64,000 nt of DNA from a virus (lineage: Duplodnaviria; Caudoviricetes): positions 64,001 to 128,000 of IMG/VR virus record IMGVR_UViG_3300031992_000018, one strand, 5' to 3'. The position numbers were made by a program, and so were the translations under genes. Below, piece after piece: positions 17,823-47,704 of the stretch. Every line of letters starts with the position of its first letter. Within the stretch, counting starts at the first letter, position 1. Under the pieces are notes generated by a model. It was not told the origin of the DNA, searched no databases, and was given only the letters and a program-made list of their open reading frames with translations.

Positions 17823-18809
17823 ATGGCAAAGGTAGAAGAAAATAAAAAATTAGACGTTATCTCAGTCATTACAACATTCTATAATGCTGAGAAATTTATA
17901 TTCAATACTCTTAATTCTATTAATCAGCAAATTATTGACGGATTTGATTTTGAGTATGTAATTGTTGATGATAAATCACCAGATTCTTCAAGAAAAATAG
18001 TTGAATCATTTATTGAAAATAATGTTCCAGAAGACAAGAAAAGTAAATGGAAACTTTATACTCCAGAAGAAAATCTTGGTTGTGGTGGAGCAAGAAAATT
18101 TGGTATTGATCATGCAATTGGAGATTTCTTTATGTTCCTTGATGCTGATGATTATTATATGCATACAAACTTTATGTTGAATGCTTATAATACAATTATT
18201 TCAGAAAATGCAGATATTGTTGAATATGGTGTAATATTTAATCAACCAAATGGACAACAAATAAATAATACTGCTCCACAAAAGTATATTATTGAAAATA
18301 ATCCAAGTGTTGCTGAAATTGCATTATTCAAAGATAATCTTATTAAATTCAATGTATGGAGTAAAATCTATAGAAGATGGGTTGTTGAAAGTTATCCTTA
18401 TTCAGAAGTACGTACATATGAAGATGTAAGAACTATTCCTGTATGGGTTTCAAATGCTCATAAAATAGTTATAATGCCTACTGCTGAGATTAATTATCGT
18501 GCTGCTAGTGGAAGTATTATTAGAAGTGATATGATTCAAACTCGTCTTGGAACTATTACTGCTATTACAGAATTATTCCCAAGATTCAAAGATGATTATA
18601 ATGTTCTTAAAGCTATGTATGGTAGAGCTATGGTTGATTTAGAGGCATTACTTCATAATCATTCTTCTAATGATCCAGGATTTAATGAAATGAGTAGATT
18701 AAATACAATAATGCTTTCTTATCTTTATCCAGATAATTATAAAGAAATTACTTATAATATTGATTTAGAAGAAAATAAAAATATTGAAGAAAATAATGAA
18801 TCTAAATAG
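17823..18809 (+). CDS. family 2 glycosyltransferase
   Basis: SVITTFYN, VIVDDKSPD, NLGCGGAR..G, FLDADD, VWSKIYR, YED motifs. Confidence 0.9.
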   Translation: MAKVEENKKLDVISVITTFYNAEKFIFNTLNSINQQIIDGFDFEYVIVDDKSPDSSRKIVESFIENNVPEDKKSKWKLYTPEENLGCGGARKFGIDHAIGDFFMFLDADDYYMHTNFMLNAYNTIISENADIVEYGVIFNQPNGQQINNTAPQKYIIENNPSVAEIALFKDNLIKFNVWSKIYRRWVVESYPYSEVRTYEDVRTIPVWVSNAHKIVIMPTAEINYRAASGSIIRSDMIQTRLGTITAITELFPRFKDDYNVLKAMYGRAMVDLEALLHNHSSNDPGFNEMSRLNTIMLSYLYPDNYKEITYNIDLEENKNIEENNESK

Positions 18810-41158: not shown

Positions 41159-42046
41159 TTAATCATGATACCATTTAGGAGGATTTTTTTGTAAAGGAGA
41201 TTCTTTAAACATACGTAGCATATTTGTAACATTACTTACATTCCACTTTGATATATCCCCATTAAATTTAGAATTTAAAAACATACAATACATATTAGTA
41301 ACTTTACTTACATCCCAAGATGATATATCTCCATTAAATTCAGTCTTACTAAACATACTTGCCATACTTGTAACATTACTTACATCCCATTTTGATATAT
41401 CACCATTAAATTTAGAATTATAAAACATACTATTCATACCTGTAACATTGCTTACATTCCAAGATGATATATCACTATTAAAATCAGAATCACAAAACAT
41501 TGCCGACATATCAGTAACATTACTTACATCCCAAGAAGATATATCTCCATTAAATGATGAATAATAAAACATCTGTGACATATCAGTAACATTACTTACA
41601 TCCCAAGAAGATATATTTCCATTAAATAATGAATGATAAAACATAGAAATCATATCTTTAACATTACTTACATCCCAAGATGATATATCACCATTAAATT
41701 CAGAACCAGAAAACATTCTTTGCATATTAGTAACATTACTTACATCCCAAGATGATATATTTCCATTAAATTTAGAATTATAGAACATACTATCCATATT
41801 AGTAACATTACTTACATCCCAAGATGATATATTTCCATTAAATTTAGAATTATAGAACATACTATCCATATTAGTAACATTACTTACATCAATATCATTT
41901 AAATCAGCCTTATTTCCTCTTTCTTCAATAAGTTTATCTACTAAAGATTTAAGTTCATCTCTATCTTTAGGTTGATAATTATGTATTGGTTTAATATTTT
42001 TATTAAGATGAAGTTTTTCAAATAAGTAATTATTTAATTCTTTCAT
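41159..42046 (-). CDS. DUF285 / BspA-like repeat protein with CTS-like leader
   Basis: Ten 24-aa repeats WDVSNVT.M..MF....FNG.IS; leader MKELNNYLFEKLHLNKNI. Confidence 0.85.
   Translation of the reverse strand: MKELNNYLFEKLHLNKNIKPIHNYQPKDRDELKSLVDKLIEERGNKADLNDIDVSNVTNMDSMFYNSKFNGNISSWDVSNVTNMDSMFYNSKFNGNISSWDVSNVTNMQRMFSGSEFNGDISSWDVSNVKDMISMFYHSLFNGNISSWDVSNVTDMSQMFYYSSFNGDISSWDVSNVTDMSAMFCDSDFNSDISSWNVSNVTGMNSMFYNSKFNGDISKWDVSNVTSMASMFSKTEFNGDISSWDVSKVTNMYCMFLNSKFNGDISKWNVSNVTNMLRMFKESPLQKNPPKWYHD
41723..41890. repeat. perfect 72-bp tandem repeat (2.3 copies) within the DUF285 array
   Basis: Unit starting catattagtaacattacttacatc at 41723, 41795 and 41867. Confidence 0.9.
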
Positions 42047-42078: not shown

Positions 42079-42108
42079 AAAAAAGAGGTTCATTTATTGA
42101 ACCTCTTT
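42079..42108. terminator. terminator, copy 2 of the duplicated hairpin
   Basis: aaaaaagaggttcatttattgaacctcttt, identical to 41125 except for 1 loop nt. Confidence 0.8.
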
Positions 42109-42127
42109 CTATTTATATTTTAGTAAA

Positions 42128-43405
42128 TTATTTTTCAAGCATTGCAAGTTCTTTAGCTGCTTTATTAAGAAGAGTAATCTTAACAGGATCATTCTTATAT
42201 TGTTCTGCTAAAAGAGCAATCTTCTTTCTTCTTGCTGCGAATGCTGCTTCTTTATCAGCTTCAAGTTGTTCCTTGATTTGCTGATATTTTTCGGGATCAG
42301 CTTTCTTACAATCTTCATTGATTCTATTTTCATAAACTTCTTTAAGATCAATACCTGTTACTTTAATAACATCCTTAAGAGCTTCTACCATAAAATCATA
42401 AGATTTAACTGAAGTACCAGCATTAAGTGAACGGTTAACTGAAAGAACTACATTATTACCTTCGATAATTGTGCAAATTTCACCTGTAGATGTCTGAAGA
42501 ACATTAACATTATCAAGAGCGCGTACATTATCATAAGCTTCAAATACTTCTGCAATAGCACTTGTAACATTCATCCAATTCATCTTTTCATTTAATGACA
42601 TTGGTTTAGAAACTGTATTACAATACTGAATAAAATCAGCTGCATTACTAAAGCTTTCTTTAAGATCACCTTTTGTAAATACAAGACCTTCATCAGTTAA
42701 AGTAAATCTTGCTGTATCTCCATGAGTACCTTTATATTCATAGAAAATAGAATTATCTTCTCTAGAGAAACTTTCAAGAAGAGCATTAATTCTCTTGAAT
42801 TTAATATCATCACAAACAGCTTCAGTAATATTATTTTCTTCATCTCTCTTATAAGTTTTACCAAGAACTGAGAAATAAGAATCTTTCTTATCTTCACTTT
42901 CTGTAACTACTACATAAGAAATAGGAGTTGTAACAACATATGTAGGAGCATGCATTTCATTAAGAGTTGAAGCATAAACATTCTTAAGAATCTGTCTAAA
43001 TTCAGGAATAAATGTAAGGTTCTTCATTGCACCAGCTTTAAGATATGATACAACTTCACTTTCATTCATTTCAAGAAGTTTATCTACTTGTTCAAGTCCC
43101 ATCTTTGAAAGATAACCATAACTTGAATTATTAGCATTGATTGATTCACAAGCTGTTGCAAGTTGCCAAGAAATATTATTTTCTTTAATAAAACTATTAA
43201 CAGATTCTAAAATTCCTACCAAACCTGCATCGAAACTAAATTTAGCTGCTTCTTTAATAAAGCCATTAACGATACCACAGGTAACTGGATTAGAATAAAT
43301 ATATCCTCTGTAGTTTTGTAACATTTCTTTACCTGCTTCGGTAACTGCTTCAGTTCCGTTTATCTTACTTGCGAAGTCCAGGTTTTTTAGTAATTTTATA
43401 TTCAT
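42128..43405 (-). CDS. probable abundant structural/prohead core protein
   Basis: 425 aa; many [LIV]xE sites (VTE, ILE, LLE, LNE, INE); coiled-coil C-terminus. Confidence 0.5.
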   Translation of the reverse strand: MNIKLLKNLDFASKINGTEAVTEAGKEMLQNYRGYIYSNPVTCGIVNGFIKEAAKFSFDAGLVGILESVNSFIKENNISWQLATACESINANNSSYGYLSKMGLEQVDKLLEMNESEVVSYLKAGAMKNLTFIPEFRQILKNVYASTLNEMHAPTYVVTTPISYVVVTESEDKKDSYFSVLGKTYKRDEENNITEAVCDDIKFKRINALLESFSREDNSIFYEYKGTHGDTARFTLTDEGLVFTKGDLKESFSNAADFIQYCNTVSKPMSLNEKMNWMNVTSAIAEVFEAYDNVRALDNVNVLQTSTGEICTIIEGNNVVLSVNRSLNAGTSVKSYDFMVEALKDVIKVTGIDLKEVYENRINEDCKKADPEKYQQIKEQLEADKEAAFAARRKKIALLAEQYKNDPVKITLLNKAAKELAMLEK

Positions 43406-43499
43406 AGTTTTAATATATTTGGTATATTTATAGAATTTGTAGATTAATTCTACTTTTTATATATAATAATAAAATAATTTTAAAATGTATGATTATTTA

Positions 43500-43721
43500 T
43501 TATATTTTTGTTTTAATATCTTTAATGTCACCAATTTTAATAACAATTGTATTTTCACTACATTTTGCTATTTCCCAATCATCAATTTGATTCCATTCAT
43601 CAAAATCATCATCATCTGGTCTATGCCAAAAGAATTTACCTCTTAAATCAACTTCTAAAATATATCCTTTACCATTATTATTTATATTTTCATTTAAAAG
43701 GAGTTCAACTAAATTTTTCAT
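43500..43721 (-). CDS. putative head-internal protein with CTS-like leader
   Basis: MKNLVELLLNE. Confidence 0.6.
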   Translation of the reverse strand: MKNLVELLLNENINNNGKGYILEVDLRGKFFWHRPDDDDFDEWNQIDDWEIAKCSENTIVIKIGDIKDIKTKI

Positions 43722-43745
43722 AATTATATTATATATTTATTTATT

Positions 43746-44033
43746 TTATACTTTCCAACCAACTGATGTACCAACAGCAGTAAGTATAAGTCTTGATGTA
43801 AATAAACTTCCAAGAGGACCAGTTTCGTTAATACCAAGAGCCTTACAAATTGCTTTCATAACTTTAGGGCCAAATGTAGCACCAGTAATACCACCAACTA
43901 TAGATCCTATAATTCCTTCTTCAATTGGAATATTATTTTCTTTAGCCTCTTGAAGTTTAGCAATTACATTATCATAAGTTAATTCCTCTGTAATAGGAGT
44001 TTCAGTATTTATAAAATCTTCTAATTTTTTCAT
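43746..44033 (-). CDS. CTS-like leader protein with Gly-zipper hydrophobic C-terminal half
   Basis: MKKLEDFINTE..ITEE...IEEGIIGSIVGGITGATFG. Confidence 0.65.
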   Translation of the reverse strand: MKKLEDFINTETPITEELTYDNVIAKLQEAKENNIPIEEGIIGSIVGGITGATFGPKVMKAICKALGINETGPLGSLFTSRLILTAVGTSVGWKV

Positions 44034-44038
44034 ATTAA

Positions 44039-44467
44039 TTATTTAATGATTTTATCTATATCAAAATCAAATTCATCTTTATTATCAACTAAATTCTTTA
44101 TAATTTCATCTTTTGTTCCTATAAAAACTTGATTATCTTCTTCAGAATTTCCAGCAATAGCATTTAATCCAGGACGATAAAAAATATAACTTGTTTCATC
44201 ATATATATTTTTAAAAATTAAATCACCAACCTTAGGTTTATTATTACCTTTATCAGCAAAATAATTACTATTATCATATATAAAGTATTCTTCAATAAAT
44301 TCTTTCATAGAAGAACCTTCTTTAAAATCATCATTTGTTAATATATGATAAGGTTCAATCTCTTTAATTAATTTATTTAATTTACTTTGTGCATTGATTT
44401 CTTTATAATCAATTATATAATATATATCTTTTTTTGTTTCTAAAATATAATCTTTTAAACTTTTCAT
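44039..44467 (-). CDS. putative head-internal protein with CTS-like leader
   Basis: MKSLKDYILE. Confidence 0.65.
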   Translation of the reverse strand: MKSLKDYILETKKDIYYIIDYKEINAQSKLNKLIKEIEPYHILTNDDFKEGSSMKEFIEEYFIYDNSNYFADKGNNKPKVGDLIFKNIYDETSYIFYRPGLNAIAGNSEEDNQVFIGTKDEIIKNLVDNKDEFDFDIDKIIK

Positions 44468-44487
44468 ATTAATTATTTAATAATTTT

Positions 44488-45258
44488 TTATAGTTTTTTA
44501 CCAAGATTATTTATTGGATGAGGAAATTCATTTTTCTTTGCAAGTTCTTCTAAATCTTTTTCATACTTCTCTTTTTCAAAAACAATTGTAAATAAGAAAG
44601 TATAAAGATCATCAAGATTATCAATAGCAACATCAAGTACTTGAGCCCAAGTAATTTCTTTTCTCTTTTCAAGTTTAGTTAAAGTATCTGCTGCATTAAG
44701 TAAAGAATTTTTTATAGAACATTCTTTACCATTAGTACCCATATGTTTAATAGCAAATAATTGAATATCACCATTAGCTCTTAATAAAAGTACAGGTTCT
44801 GATAATTTTTCATCTTTACATATAGATAATATATCATTTCTTAATTTAGGACTCATACACATATTTCCCATATTAGAACATGGTTCATAAAATACAAGTG
44901 GTTCTGAATTGCTTCTTTGATATTCATCATTGAATCTGCATTTATAACTAAATTCTCCATGTGCATTATATAAATCCATTACTTTAGGATAACCTGAAAA
45001 AATCTGTGTATATTTTGTAACAGGATCTAATGGAGTACATGAACTAGGTTCTAAAGTATTTGCACATGGAACGCAAGGATCAACAGTACATGATGCTTCA
45101 CCAGGAATATCACATCCATAAGAGCAACCATCATCACAACATCCACAACATTCAGTTATTTCATATCCTTCAAGATTAGAAAGTTTTTCTACAATATTCT
45201 TATCTAATCCCTTTAAACATATATATTGATTATTTATATATTCAGATAATTTTTTCAT
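44488..45258 (-). CDS. CTS-like leader protein with Cys-rich segment
   Basis: MKKLSEYINN...ITECCGCCDDGCSYGC... Confidence 0.65.
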   Translation of the reverse strand: MKKLSEYINNQYICLKGLDKNIVEKLSNLEGYEITECCGCCDDGCSYGCDIPGEASCTVDPCVPCANTLEPSSCTPLDPVTKYTQIFSGYPKVMDLYNAHGEFSYKCRFNDEYQRSNSEPLVFYEPCSNMGNMCMSPKLRNDILSICKDEKLSEPVLLLRANGDIQLFAIKHMGTNGKECSIKNSLLNAADTLTKLEKRKEITWAQVLDVAIDNLDDLYTFLFTIVFEKEKYEKDLEELAKKNEFPHPINNLGKKL

Positions 45259-45312
45259 ATCTTAATATTATATAATTTTCTATTAAACTTTAGAAAATGT
45301 AGTAATTCTAAT

Positions 45313-45660
45313 TTATTTTACTAATTCTAATACTTTAGCTATAACCTTTTTAAAGATTTCACCAGCCTTTTCAGGTTCATTTTTAAATAATTGTAAACAA
45401 ACTGCACTATGATAAGCATCATATATTTTATTATTTATTTCTTTATCCCATTTTGGAGATTCAAAATAAACATCTAAAGCATTCATAGCTACATCATGAA
45501 TCTTATTTACATCATCATTATTTTTAACATCTAAATCTTTAACATCATCATATTGAGATGATAATTCATTAACCGATATTGCTTTATTTTCATTTATATT
45601 AAAATCAATATCAATTGTATTTGCACTTGCATTGTTTAAATATTCATTTAAGCTTTTCAT
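45313..45660 (-). CDS. putative head-internal protein with CTS-like leader
   Basis: MKSLNEYLNN...NINE. Confidence 0.65.
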   Translation of the reverse strand: MKSLNEYLNNASANTIDIDFNINENKAISVNELSSQYDDVKDLDVKNNDDVNKIHDVAMNALDVYFESPKWDKEINNKIYDAYHSAVCLQLFKNEPEKAGEIFKKVIAKVLELVK

Positions 45661-45677
45661 ATCTTTATATTATTTAT

Positions 45678-45890
45678 TTAATCAAAATATCCACAAGCAT
45701 CCATTTCATCATAAAGTTCTTCTAAAGTTTTGTCTGTAAATGTATCCCACAAAAGATTTAAAATTTCTTCTGTATCTAATTTAGAAAAAGCTTTATTCAT
45801 TTTTTCTTTATAATTATCTCTTTCTGATTGAGACCATTCATTAATTACTTGTTCATCAGTATGATTTAAATATTCATTTAAGTTTTTCAT
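45678..45890 (-). CDS. putative head-internal protein with CTS-like leader, acidic
   Basis: MKNLNEYLNH...VINE. Confidence 0.65.
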   Translation of the reverse strand: MKNLNEYLNHTDEQVINEWSQSERDNYKEKMNKAFSKLDTEEILNLLWDTFTDKTLEELYDEMDACGYFD

Positions 45891-45936
45891 ATCTTTATAT
45901 TATTTATTTATATAATTTTCCATTGAGTTTCATAAA

Positions 45937-46416
45937 TTAATCCCAAGCGGCATCATCATATTCTTTTGTTCTTCTTATATTTTTATAACCATTATCAGTA
46001 TATGAAAGTTTAGTATAAAGATTATTTATTAATTCATAAATAAATCCATAAGGTTTTCCAGGATCTTTTCTTTCAGAACATTGATACTGCCAACTGTCTA
46101 GCCATTTTAATATTTGTACCTCTGAAACTTTTTCTTTAGGTTCAGAATATTTAAATGTAGATTTTGCTGCTTCTGATTTTCCATATCTATAACTTATTGC
46201 ACGACGATTACAATTATATAAATCATTTGCAATTGTTTGTTCATCTGCATCATCATACCATTTTATGTATGTTTTAGTAATTTTTGAAAGTAAATCAGAT
46301 TTATTTATAAATAAGTCATGAATATATTTTGCTAATTGATTAATTACTTCATCACTTTCCATAAATGCAGATTCATTAATGAGTGATTCATTTAAATATT
46401 CATTTAAGTTTTTCAT
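45937..46416 (-). CDS. putative head-internal protein with CTS-like leader
   Basis: MKNLNEYLNESLINE; mature part has LY..N..A...RY and YQCSE motifs. Confidence 0.7.
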   Translation of the reverse strand: MKNLNEYLNESLINESAFMESDEVINQLAKYIHDLFINKSDLLSKITKTYIKWYDDADEQTIANDLYNCNRRAISYRYGKSEAAKSTFKYSEPKEKVSEVQILKWLDSWQYQCSERKDPGKPYGFIYELINNLYTKLSYTDNGYKNIRRTKEYDDAAWD

Positions 46417-46424
46417 ATCTTATA

Positions 46425-46826
46425 TTATATAATTTTCCATTGAGTTTCAGAAACTGTAGTGATTCTCATATTATCAAGACCTTGTTTAAGATAAAGGTCA
46501 AGAATCTTTTGAAGTTCTGTATTGTTATTAGCATAAAAAGGAACAGGATATTTAAGAGTCTTTATTGTTCCATCTTCCTGTTCTACTTCTTCTGCAAATT
46601 TTACTATAAATACTTTGCATGTTTCTTGATATTCTATATTACCAGCTGGTTTAAGATTCTTCATAAGACATACATCTTCAATCTCTCCTTCACCATTTAA
46701 ATATTTTAATACAGCATATCCTGCTTCTGCAAAATTATTTTGATCACTAAGATAATACTCAGTGATAGGTTTTTCTTTACCTTTAGTGGTTAATATATTT
46801 CTACTTACCTTAACTCTGTACCACAT
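46425..46826 (-). CDS. DUF4494-like protein (Bacteroidota family)
   Basis: MWY.VKV......GKEK.ITE.YL....F.EA...; ends VSET..II. Confidence 0.7.
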   Translation of the reverse strand: MWYRVKVSRNILTTKGKEKPITEYYLSDQNNFAEAGYAVLKYLNGEGEIEDVCLMKNLKPAGNIEYQETCKVFIVKFAEEVEQEDGTIKTLKYPVPFYANNNTELQKILDLYLKQGLDNMRITTVSETQWKII

Positions 46827-46838
46827 AATTATTATATA

Positions 46839-47273
46839 TTATATACTTTCTAAATCTATCCATCCGTATTTGCTACTATCTAATTTATCCTGAATTTTTT
46901 CAATAAAATCAATAAAAGAATAAATTACATAATCTCTTGATGGATCAAATTCATCATCATCACCTTTATAATATTTAATATCATCTAAATCTGGATAAAG
47001 ATTATTTATATATTTTTTAAAAATTTCTATTTCCATTTTTAATTCATCTTCTCTTTCTTTAGATTTATAGTTAGTTTCAAAATCTTCTCTTCTTTGAATA
47101 CTTAAAAACTCTCCAATAGATTTATCATCATTATTTATTATAAAAAATTGTTCACCACTAACACCATTATCGTCATAATGATACTGGAAAACTAATAATT
47201 TAATATCATCTATTTTTATATTTTTATTAAGATGAAGTTTTTCTGAAATTAAATATTCATTTAAAGTTTTCAT
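46839..47273 (-). CDS. putative head-internal protein, EKLHLNK leader subfamily
   Basis: MKTLNEYLISEKLHLNKNIK. Confidence 0.7.
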   Translation of the reverse strand: MKTLNEYLISEKLHLNKNIKIDDIKLLVFQYHYDDNGVSGEQFFIINNDDKSIGEFLSIQRREDFETNYKSKEREDELKMEIEIFKKYINNLYPDLDDIKYYKGDDDEFDPSRDYVIYSFIDFIEKIQDKLDSSKYGWIDLESI

Positions 47274-47280
47274 ATATTAT

Positions 47281-47613
47281 TTATTTATTTATTTCATTAT
47301 ATCTTTCAATTATATCTAATAGTAATTGTTTATTAGATATTGGATAAAACATTCTATCAATATAGATTCCAATAATATCTTTTGGTGCTGCAATATCTAA
47401 TTCTTTATCAATCATATTTATTGTATACCATGAATAATCATTTCCTTCTTTTAAAAGAATTTTAGGTAATTGATCAGAATTACTTTTATTTGCATCATAT
47501 CTATTTGTTCTATCGATTACTTTTTTACATGCTTCATCTTTTTCTAAAATAGATTTTACAAATGCAAAAAAAGAATTTTTTCCTTCAGTTATATATTCAT
47601 TTAAATTCTTCAT
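47281..47613 (-). CDS. putative head-internal protein with CTS-like leader
   Basis: MKNLNEYITE. Confidence 0.7.
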   Translation of the reverse strand: MKNLNEYITEGKNSFFAFVKSILEKDEACKKVIDRTNRYDANKSNSDQLPKILLKEGNDYSWYTINMIDKELDIAAPKDIIGIYIDRMFYPISNKQLLLDIIERYNEINK

Positions 47614-47704
47614 TATATTATATAATCTAATTAAATAAAAATAAAATCTTTTGAATTATATTATCAAAATTATCTATAATACATTATCTAAATTAATTAA
47701 TAAA

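Follow-up and report, generated by a model that had tools for sequence, protein, structure and literature searches.

Tail copies of a conserved gene in an array of leader-tagged cassettes from an uncultured T4-like jumbo phage

T-even phages carry polymorphic loci for internal proteins (IPs; Repoila et al. 1994, as cited in PMC3012670), and these proteins form "a highly diverse set ... with only a conserved CTS" (PMC3012670). The CTS, or capsid-targeting sequence (Mullaney and Black 1996, as cited in PMC8442874), reads MKTYQEFIAE in T4 (PMC8442874). The authors who described PeSLs, units of a promoter and a stem-loop terminator, liken the PeSL system to integrons (PMC2839356, PMC4122927). For the displacement arrays of type VI secretion system (T6SS), Rhs and contact-dependent inhibition (CDI) loci, illegitimate recombination facilitated by homology has been suggested (PMC5361080), and C-terminal or sequential displacement is credited to Jackson 2009 and Poole 2011 (both as cited in PMC5361080). 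Here we analyze an array of small genes beside a DUF4494 gene in a 64,000-nucleotide (nt) stretch of viral DNA, which we call the window. It comprises bases 64001-128000 of a 168-kb IMG/VR viral contig with a CheckV completeness of 59%, which leaves 41% of the genome missing.

Copies of the 3' tail of DUF4494 stand as footprints between unrelated small genes, hereafter cassettes. This observation, made in an earlier note on the same DNA, is confirmed and recurs in related phages. Related loci differ by insertion or deletion of whole cassettes, DUF4494 is the only gene whose tail is duplicated, and cassettes have been exchanged between diverged backbones. From these sequence comparisons, the array is probably diversified by general phage recombination, with no dedicated recombinase, acting on promoterless, leader-tagged small genes in a hyperplastic region.

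Duplicated gene tails between unrelated cassettes

The genes of the locus follow one another on the minus strand as 110 amino acids (aa), 144 aa, DUF4494 (133 aa), 159, 70, 115, 256, 142, 95, 73 and 425 aa. The features around the duplicated tails are given below. Loci of relatives bear the prefix L, and their contexts come from exact look-ups and one metagenome scan; the 99%-identical strain carries the short allele described in the next section.

46425..46826, minus strand: DUF4494 gene (Pfam PF14902), 133 aa, the conserved anchor
46425..46467, minus strand: true 3' tail of DUF4494 (last 14 codons and stop), the source of the relics
46417..46424, minus strand: 8-nt spacer TATAAGAT between DUF4494 and the first cassette; L005, L010, L020-L025 and L028 have this 8/9-nt spacer after DUF4494
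45937..46416, minus strand: 159-aa cassette, not in the 99%-identical strain
45908..45932, minus strand: relic 1, an exact 25-nt copy of the DUF4494 tail, with the same breakpoint in L022
45891..45907, minus strand: 17-nt spacer, copy 1, identical to the spacer directly 3' of DUF4494 in L004 and L031
45678..45890, minus strand: 70-aa acidic cassette, between the 45/46 direct repeats, not in the 99%-identical strain
45865..45910, minus strand: 46-nt repeat copy A (stop, 17-nt spacer and first 9 leader codons)
45635..45680, minus strand: 46-nt repeat copy B, 45/46 identical to copy A
45313..45660, minus strand: 115-aa cassette, first after DUF4494 in the short allele
45268..45310, minus strand: relic 2, a degenerate 43-nt copy of the DUF4494 tail (35/43), with derived changes in common with the L021 relic
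45259..45267, minus strand: 9-nt spacer, resembling the DUF4494-proximal 8/9-nt spacer
44488..45258, minus strand: 256-aa Cys-rich gene, distal anchor of the most variable interval, in 13/22 loci (several loci being contig fragments that end before it)

Each junction has its own anatomy. The 8-nt spacer alone joins DUF4494 to the 159-aa gene. Between the 159-aa stop and the 70-aa gene lie 4 nt, the 25-nt tail relic and the 17-nt spacer, and the same 17-nt spacer separates the 70-aa stop from the 115-aa gene. The 115-aa stop is followed by the 43-nt degenerate relic and then by the 9-nt spacer of DUF4494-proximal type, which leads into the 256-aa gene. From this anatomy, the 70-, 115- and 256-aa genes are each preceded by a copy of a junction of the kind that joins DUF4494 to a first cassette.

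The repeats are far longer than expected by chance. The earlier note had reported matches of 25/25 (46425-46449 to 45908-45932), 35/43 (46425-46467 to 45268-45310) and 45/46 (45635-45680 to 45865-45910); all three were reproduced exactly, and a repeat finder gave the same families. Exact direct repeats reach 32 nt within 44400-47700, while the longest repeat in 200 first-order Markov simulations of the region averaged 13.6 nt with a maximum of 17. When the whole contig was searched for the 25-nt tail with at most 5 mismatches, three sites were found, namely the true gene end and the two relics. The tail copies therefore represent a local duplication and not a dispersed motif. Small changes have accrued in them: a C to A at the left edge of relic 1 creates a 9-codon mini-ORF (open reading frame) in another frame (45906-45935), and in the old relics (relic 2 of the window and that of L021) the tail ATG is now ATT and the tail TGG is now TAG.

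The cassettes between the repeats are unrelated to one another, as had been claimed. With the 12-aa leader removed, their proteins showed no similarity (BLASTP, all E > 0.2), so they are not the diverged tandem paralogues that would have contradicted the earlier interpretation. The 70-aa gene forms a singleton family among 22 loci, and an exact look-up of its protein gave no record. Tandem duplication and divergence of one ancestral gene would explain why the cassettes have leaders and spacers in common, yet no similarity extends past the leader: 48 cassette families share MK.L.EYI.E only. A metagenome assembly artefact might likewise be suspected from sample ERZ27257202, in which the assembly breaks inside the 70-aa gene (45678-45890), one contig ending 46 codons into it and another starting 42 codons before the 115-aa gene. 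Either the 46-nt repeat or a mixture of alleles in the sample would be in keeping with such a break. However, both alleles occur in independent assemblies, and the repeats are shorter than typical final assembly k-mers. We rejected the paralogue and artefact readings, to which we assign almost no probability.

Relics and cassette exchange in related loci

We assign the source of the contig, by its gene content, to an uncultured T4-like jumbo phage. The contig (25.6% GC) encodes a T4-type portal (PF07230, E 2e-75), a gp6-like baseplate wedge protein (phrog_219, E 8e-31), a DNA helicase and a large terminase, which together point to such a phage; portal and baseplate wedge make it Straboviridae-like. 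A blastn search against a phage GenBank collection gave no match. An IMG/VR scan with the protein returned two distant relatives only, and a scan with the alignment returned none. Metagenomes yielded 72 homologues of the DUF4494 protein, whose own match to PF14902 (E 7e-6, 26.4 bits) falls just below the 27-bit cut-off. DUF4494 is 86-98% identical at the DNA level in most close relatives (78% in L012 and L033), compared with 58-75% for flanking genes, and its last 30 nt are near-invariant in 31 relatives.

Comparison of loci bore out the prediction that gene number and content between DUF4494 and the 256-aa gene would vary and that a shorter allele would exist. We compared strain contigs ERZ27257202 and ERZ27256871 as gene tables. 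In the gene table of a 28-kb contig from a strain whose DUF4494 is 99% identical, the genes run DUF4494, 115, 256, 142, 95, 73, 425 and 295; this short allele has neither the 159-aa nor the 70-aa gene, and it keeps the 54-nt gap before the 256-aa gene. An independent assembly of the short allele was available as DNA (L004). Its junction consists of the tail, the 17-nt spacer and the start of the 115-aa gene, the same sequence that is preserved in the window as relic and spacer. The window thus differs from the short allele by two cassette units. Over the 2.5 kb of shared sequence, window and L004 have 12 differences. Three of these, all synonymous, crowd into the 7 nt of 46455-46461, beside the indel and bordering the conserved tail on its left, and the other nine are spread out; the cluster looks like the end of a recombination tract.

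The number of cassettes between DUF4494 and the 256-aa gene is 0, 1, 2, 3, 4, 5 or 6 among the 22 loci. The locus with none, in the more distant relative L038, passes directly from DUF4494 to the 256-aa gene and is the empty allele that had been predicted. About 14 different families occupy the first slot after DUF4494, and the interval from DUF4494 to the 425-aa gene holds 53 families in all. Cassettes share 92-97% DNA identity across backbones that are only 64-88% identical. The 115-aa gene, for example, shares 96.8% DNA identity with its copy in L032, where neighboring anchor genes share 70-88%, and for the 159-aa gene the value is 92-94%, against 64-72% for the 256-aa gene in the same comparisons. 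These results demonstrate that cassettes have moved between diverged backbones.

DUF4494-tail relics occur in four other loci: L020 (two), L021, L022 and L024. With those of the window, relic lengths include 25, 27, 36, 44, 45 and 46 nt, and all relics run to the DUF4494 stop and spacer. Those of L020, L021 and L024 each begin at a different point on the left, which gives lengths of 27, 36, 44 and 46 nt. The claim of repeated insertion at the DUF4494 end with duplication of the tail is borne out by L020, L021 and L024. In L024, a new cassette and a fresh 46-nt relic lie between DUF4494 and the 159-aa gene, which is second after DUF4494 there and first in L022 (94.4% DNA identity to the window copy in L022 and 91.9% in L024). 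The 25-nt relic of the window, with an identical breakpoint, also stands behind the 159-aa gene in L022, where another spacer and another cassette come next. The 159-aa gene and relic continue with the 17-nt spacer and 70-aa gene in the window, and with the 8-nt spacer and a gene of family f11 in L022. Both continuations are found directly after DUF4494 in other loci, the 17-nt spacer in L004 and L031 and the 8/9-nt spacer with f11 in L025. Because the window and L022 share this breakpoint and then continue with recipient-type junctions, the relic behaves as a right-hand homology arm.

The relics might also have been kept as expression signals for the downstream cassette (a promoter, UP element or translation-initiation region) instead of being neutral footprints. 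An exact match to the T4 late-promoter consensus, TATAAATA, arises from the tail and the 17-nt spacer together, some 14 nt ahead of the ATG, and the old relic persists at about 80% identity in the window and L021 although both neighboring genes differ. On the other hand, TATAAATA should often arise by chance at 25.6% GC, and the tail motif is confined to this locus within the contig. Relic 2 has 8 changes in 43 nt, and most cassettes, including members of the same families elsewhere, have junctions of 1-20 nt without the motif. We consider retention for expression quite unlikely.

Duplication was specific to DUF4494. We tested 223 gene tails in 24 loci; those of DUF4494 alone were duplicated, and no duplicate of the DUF4494 head was found in the same 24 loci. 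This specificity (some 220 other tails are not duplicated) is what a dedicated, integron-like capture system would produce, in which the DUF4494 3' end would serve as an attI-like site for an unrecognized phage recombinase or nuclease, possibly DUF4494 itself. At least five events left relics, two relic lineages have the same starting codon, and the first slot is the most variable one. As in integrons, the cassettes have no terminators of their own, and no promoter was assigned to any single one of them. Yet left breakpoints range from 25 to 46 nt, and most junctions have neither relic nor site, with gaps of 1-20 nt or overlaps; relics mark a minority of junctions. Neither a tyrosine recombinase (PF00589; controls were detected) nor a serine recombinase (PF00239) was matched in the 59%-complete contig, and no attC-like sites were found on cassettes, nor any conserved inverted repeat at junctions.

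The DUF4494 gene itself also argues against such a role. Synonymous-site conservation in the tail (0.73-0.82) is unexceptional compared with the rest of the gene (0.64-0.87), so the DNA conservation of the tail follows from protein constraint. The predicted structure (pLDDT 93.6) has a tandem beta-beta-alpha-beta fold unlike a recombinase or nuclease; fold searches gave only weak matches to eL20/LX-like ribosomal protein domains (the best, at Z 7.2) and to PurS-like domains, none of them informative. We therefore regard dedicated capture at DUF4494 as very unlikely.

The array had been described as polarised, and this part of the description survives as a tendency. Closely related pairs (window and short allele, L032 and L028, L033 and L025, L024 and L022) differ mainly on the DUF4494-proximal side, and proximal junctions tend to be longer while distal ones are tight, at 1-5 nt. 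Variation also affects slots upstream of DUF4494 and those lying between the 256-, 95- and 425-aa genes, and some families change relative order or side (f57/f38, f21 and f11). A gradient in which the most degenerate copy lies farthest away was seen in the window array only; the distal relic of L020 is as intact as its proximal one. Since other slots vary, families move and the distal L020 relic is intact, polarity is a tendency and not a rule, and the comparisons place it at one hot spot in a wider hyperplastic region. Some relatives show long gaps. In L029 an 84-nt gap after DUF4494 (L029:1973-2056) reads like the decayed 3' end of an ORF, and in L006 a gap of 322 nt (L006:6113-6434) precedes an N-terminally truncated f13 gene (66 aa, compared with 151-159 aa elsewhere). 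These gaps suggest that cassettes also decay in place.

The leader and a model for cassette gain

Cassettes of unrelated content begin with a common leader. Its consensus, MK.L.EY[IL].E (MK.L.EYI.E), is carried by 44 of the 53 cassette families, 32 of which also have [IL]x(x)E. In the contig, 18 ORFs start with the leader, and none of 1202 internal Met positions is followed by it. The locus thus shows what characterizes a T4-type CTS, a leader of about 10 aa with an (L/I)xE protease site on unrelated proteins. By analogy with T4, it is plausible that the leader is a capsid-targeting propeptide cleaved by a protease, and packaging of the cassette products is putative. Pfam searches with 48 cassette representatives matched only DUF285, DUF5856, DUF7678 and MATCAP plus a few weak families; toxin or immunity proteins of Rhs, CdiA or VgrG type were not among the matches, and PADLOC on the same representatives was almost empty.

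An extended form of the leader, EKL[KH][IL]NK, also occurs. The 144-aa gene (46839-47273) and a 295-aa DUF285 gene (41159-42046) have EKLHLNKNIK in common at the DNA level, with one mismatch in the 30 nt beyond the first 30 nt. Leader homology available for recombination can therefore reach about 60 nt. Elsewhere in the genome, at 17852-18295 and outside the window, and likewise in L055 (8853-9296), a 147-aa ORF with the leader MKHLVEYIAE lies directly 3' of the T4-type portal gene and is followed by a baseplate-hub-like gene, an arrangement unlike the T4 head-gene order.

Given that the contig has neither a tyrosine nor a serine recombinase, recombination through homology or microhomology is reasonably taken as the default, which is also what the earlier note had proposed from the lack of a visible integrase. 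We infer the following molecular steps. The conserved DUF4494 gene would offer one-sided homology between co-infecting, diverged phages, and the incoming segment would consist of DUF4494, the spacer and a new cassette. The far end of this segment would be joined through short homology or microhomology inside the DUF4494 tail of the recipient, by unequal crossover or by a homology-facilitated illegitimate join. This would displace the tail, spacer and former first cassette of the recipient downstream and leave a tail relic of 25-46 nt. Later homologous crossovers between a relic and the true tail could stack or delete cassettes, and crossovers between DNA-identical spacer-plus-leader repeats could do likewise. 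About 3 nt of microhomology is present at the 3' flank of the 159-aa gene when L024 is compared with the window and L022.

We also considered a history in which the whole gene was duplicated and then deleted. It predicts longer DUF4494 fragments, and a tblastn search of 45 loci found no longer DUF4494 pseudogene fragments; we rejected it.

A related route would pass through mini-circles. Recombination between tail and relic, or between leader repeats, would loop out a circle of spacer, cassette and tail, which would enter another genome by one Campbell-type crossover at that genome's DUF4494 tail and so regenerate the flanking tail duplication. Direct repeats of 25 nt enclose the 159-aa unit, those around the 70-aa unit measure 46 nt, and the same unit of 159-aa gene and relic stands before two different arrays. 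Such circles between short flanking repeats have been detected experimentally in T4-type phages, at the PeSLs of RB49 and phi1 (PMC2839356). However, this route needs a pre-existing relic and leaves the first relic unexplained, 25-46 nt is a short homology, and linear unequal crossover yields identical products. We judge the mini-circle route unlikely.

Several points weigh against general recombination of leader-tagged genes as set out above. We infer the first illegitimate join from a single cassette seen in two contexts. A recombinase or special factor could lie in the missing part of the genome, and no RecA/UvsX-type gene was found in the 59%-complete contig. Met120 is the common start codon of two relic lineages (L024, and relic 2 of the window with L021), which is more regular than random breakpoints. 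The role of the leader is argued from its likeness to that of T4; the contig gave no match to the capsid family PF07068 and none to the gp21-family prohead protease (PF03420), which was not matched in control genomes either.

The remaining genes of the unit flank this variable interval.

47281..47613, minus strand: 110-aa leader-tagged gene, first of the terminator-free unit; homologues (56-59% aa identity) hold this position in most relatives
46839..47273, minus strand: 144-aa cassette, variable, upstream of DUF4494; its leader is of the extended form (MK.LNEYL..EKLHLNKNI)
42128..44467, minus strand: further slots, with 142-aa (variable), 95-aa, 73-aa and 425-aa (conserved) genes
42080..42110, minus strand: terminator-like hairpin closing the unit

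No other terminator-like site was found on the minus strand from 48712 to 42110. The 144-aa cassette is present in L004 and not in L005, where the 110-aa homologue abuts DUF4494; relatives have other families in this slot. A region of about 94 nt upstream of the 425-aa gene (43406-43499) is highly conserved across diverged loci (L010, L022, L028, L029 and L032). With an exact TATAAATA some 20 nt ahead of the ATG of the 425-aa gene, it may be an internal late promoter. In one 283-kb relative (L009:8657-9915), the 425-aa gene is split into ORFs of 333 and 87 aa, by either a frameshift or stop or else an assembly error. An atlas search with the 425-aa gene returned nothing useful. In distant loci with about 50% identity (L002, L003 and L041-L053), DUF4494 lies downstream of a 350-aa RecA/UvsX-like gene, adjoining it in some and one to four small genes away in others.

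Comparison with described systems

The significance of the locus depends in part on the leader. If the leader is a capsid-targeting tag, the phage group would hold a very large, rapidly exchanged repertoire of proteins that are possibly injected with the DNA, and one locus with 53 families in 22 relatives, almost all of them ORFans, would be a promising site for finding anti-defence or host-takeover functions. A dedicated capture site at DUF4494, were that very unlikely reading true, would mean integrase-free, polarised acquisition of virion-delivered effector genes in a T4-like phage. The gene-tail footprints form an unusually readable record of how a lytic phage may add genes at a boundary between homology and heterology.

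We compared the locus to integrons and CRISPR arrays, which the earlier note had likened it to. The resemblance holds for layout: as in integrons, apparently promoterless cassettes are stacked beside a fixed site and would be read from an upstream promoter, and the newest tends to be proximal. It does not extend to a dedicated recombinase or a site on each cassette. Integrons use IntI, attI and attC, whereas here there is no IntI-type recombinase in the contig, attC-like sites were not found and breakpoints vary. Unlike a CRISPR array, the locus has repeats without regularity (25, 43 and 46 nt), and whole genes of 213-480 nt lie between them.

PeSL shuffling is closer. There, too, ORFan cassettes in hyperplastic regions are gained, lost and swapped through short flanking sequences with no integrase (PMC2839356, PMC4122927). 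The repeated unit differs, being a gene tail, a short spacer and a coding leader here and a promoter with a stem-loop terminator in PeSLs. The unit described here has no internal terminators, its junctions are too short for a promoter-terminator module, and its duplications derive from one specific conserved gene.

The T-even IP loci also consist of small, unrelated, fast-evolving genes with only an N-terminal leader of about 10 aa in common. The leader described here is as long as the T4 CTS and agrees with it at positions 1-2 (M-K), 6 (E), 7 (aromatic), 8 (I or L) and 10 (E). In contrast to IP loci, the scale is far larger: one slot region yields 53 families over 22 loci, and the 168-kb contig has at least 18 tagged ORFs. 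The extended EKL[KH][IL]NK leader and the footprints of a neighboring gene's 3' end further distinguish the locus, and packaging and cleavage are putative here.

The Rhs, CDI and T6SS displacement arrays match the locus in architecture. In these arrays a conserved upstream anchor gives homology, older modules are displaced downstream to form polar arrays, and fragments of the conserved region precede the displaced modules, an arrangement also found at DUF4494. Those systems are bacterial toxin-immunity loci, whereas the present one is an operon of a lytic phage whose leader-tagged ORFs are complete and apparently still expressed; only the anchor copy is truncated. The footprints would thus link phage hyperplastic regions mechanistically with bacterial toxin displacement arrays. 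We conclude that the finding is an extension of recombination processes known from T4-type phages and from the toxin loci of bacteria.

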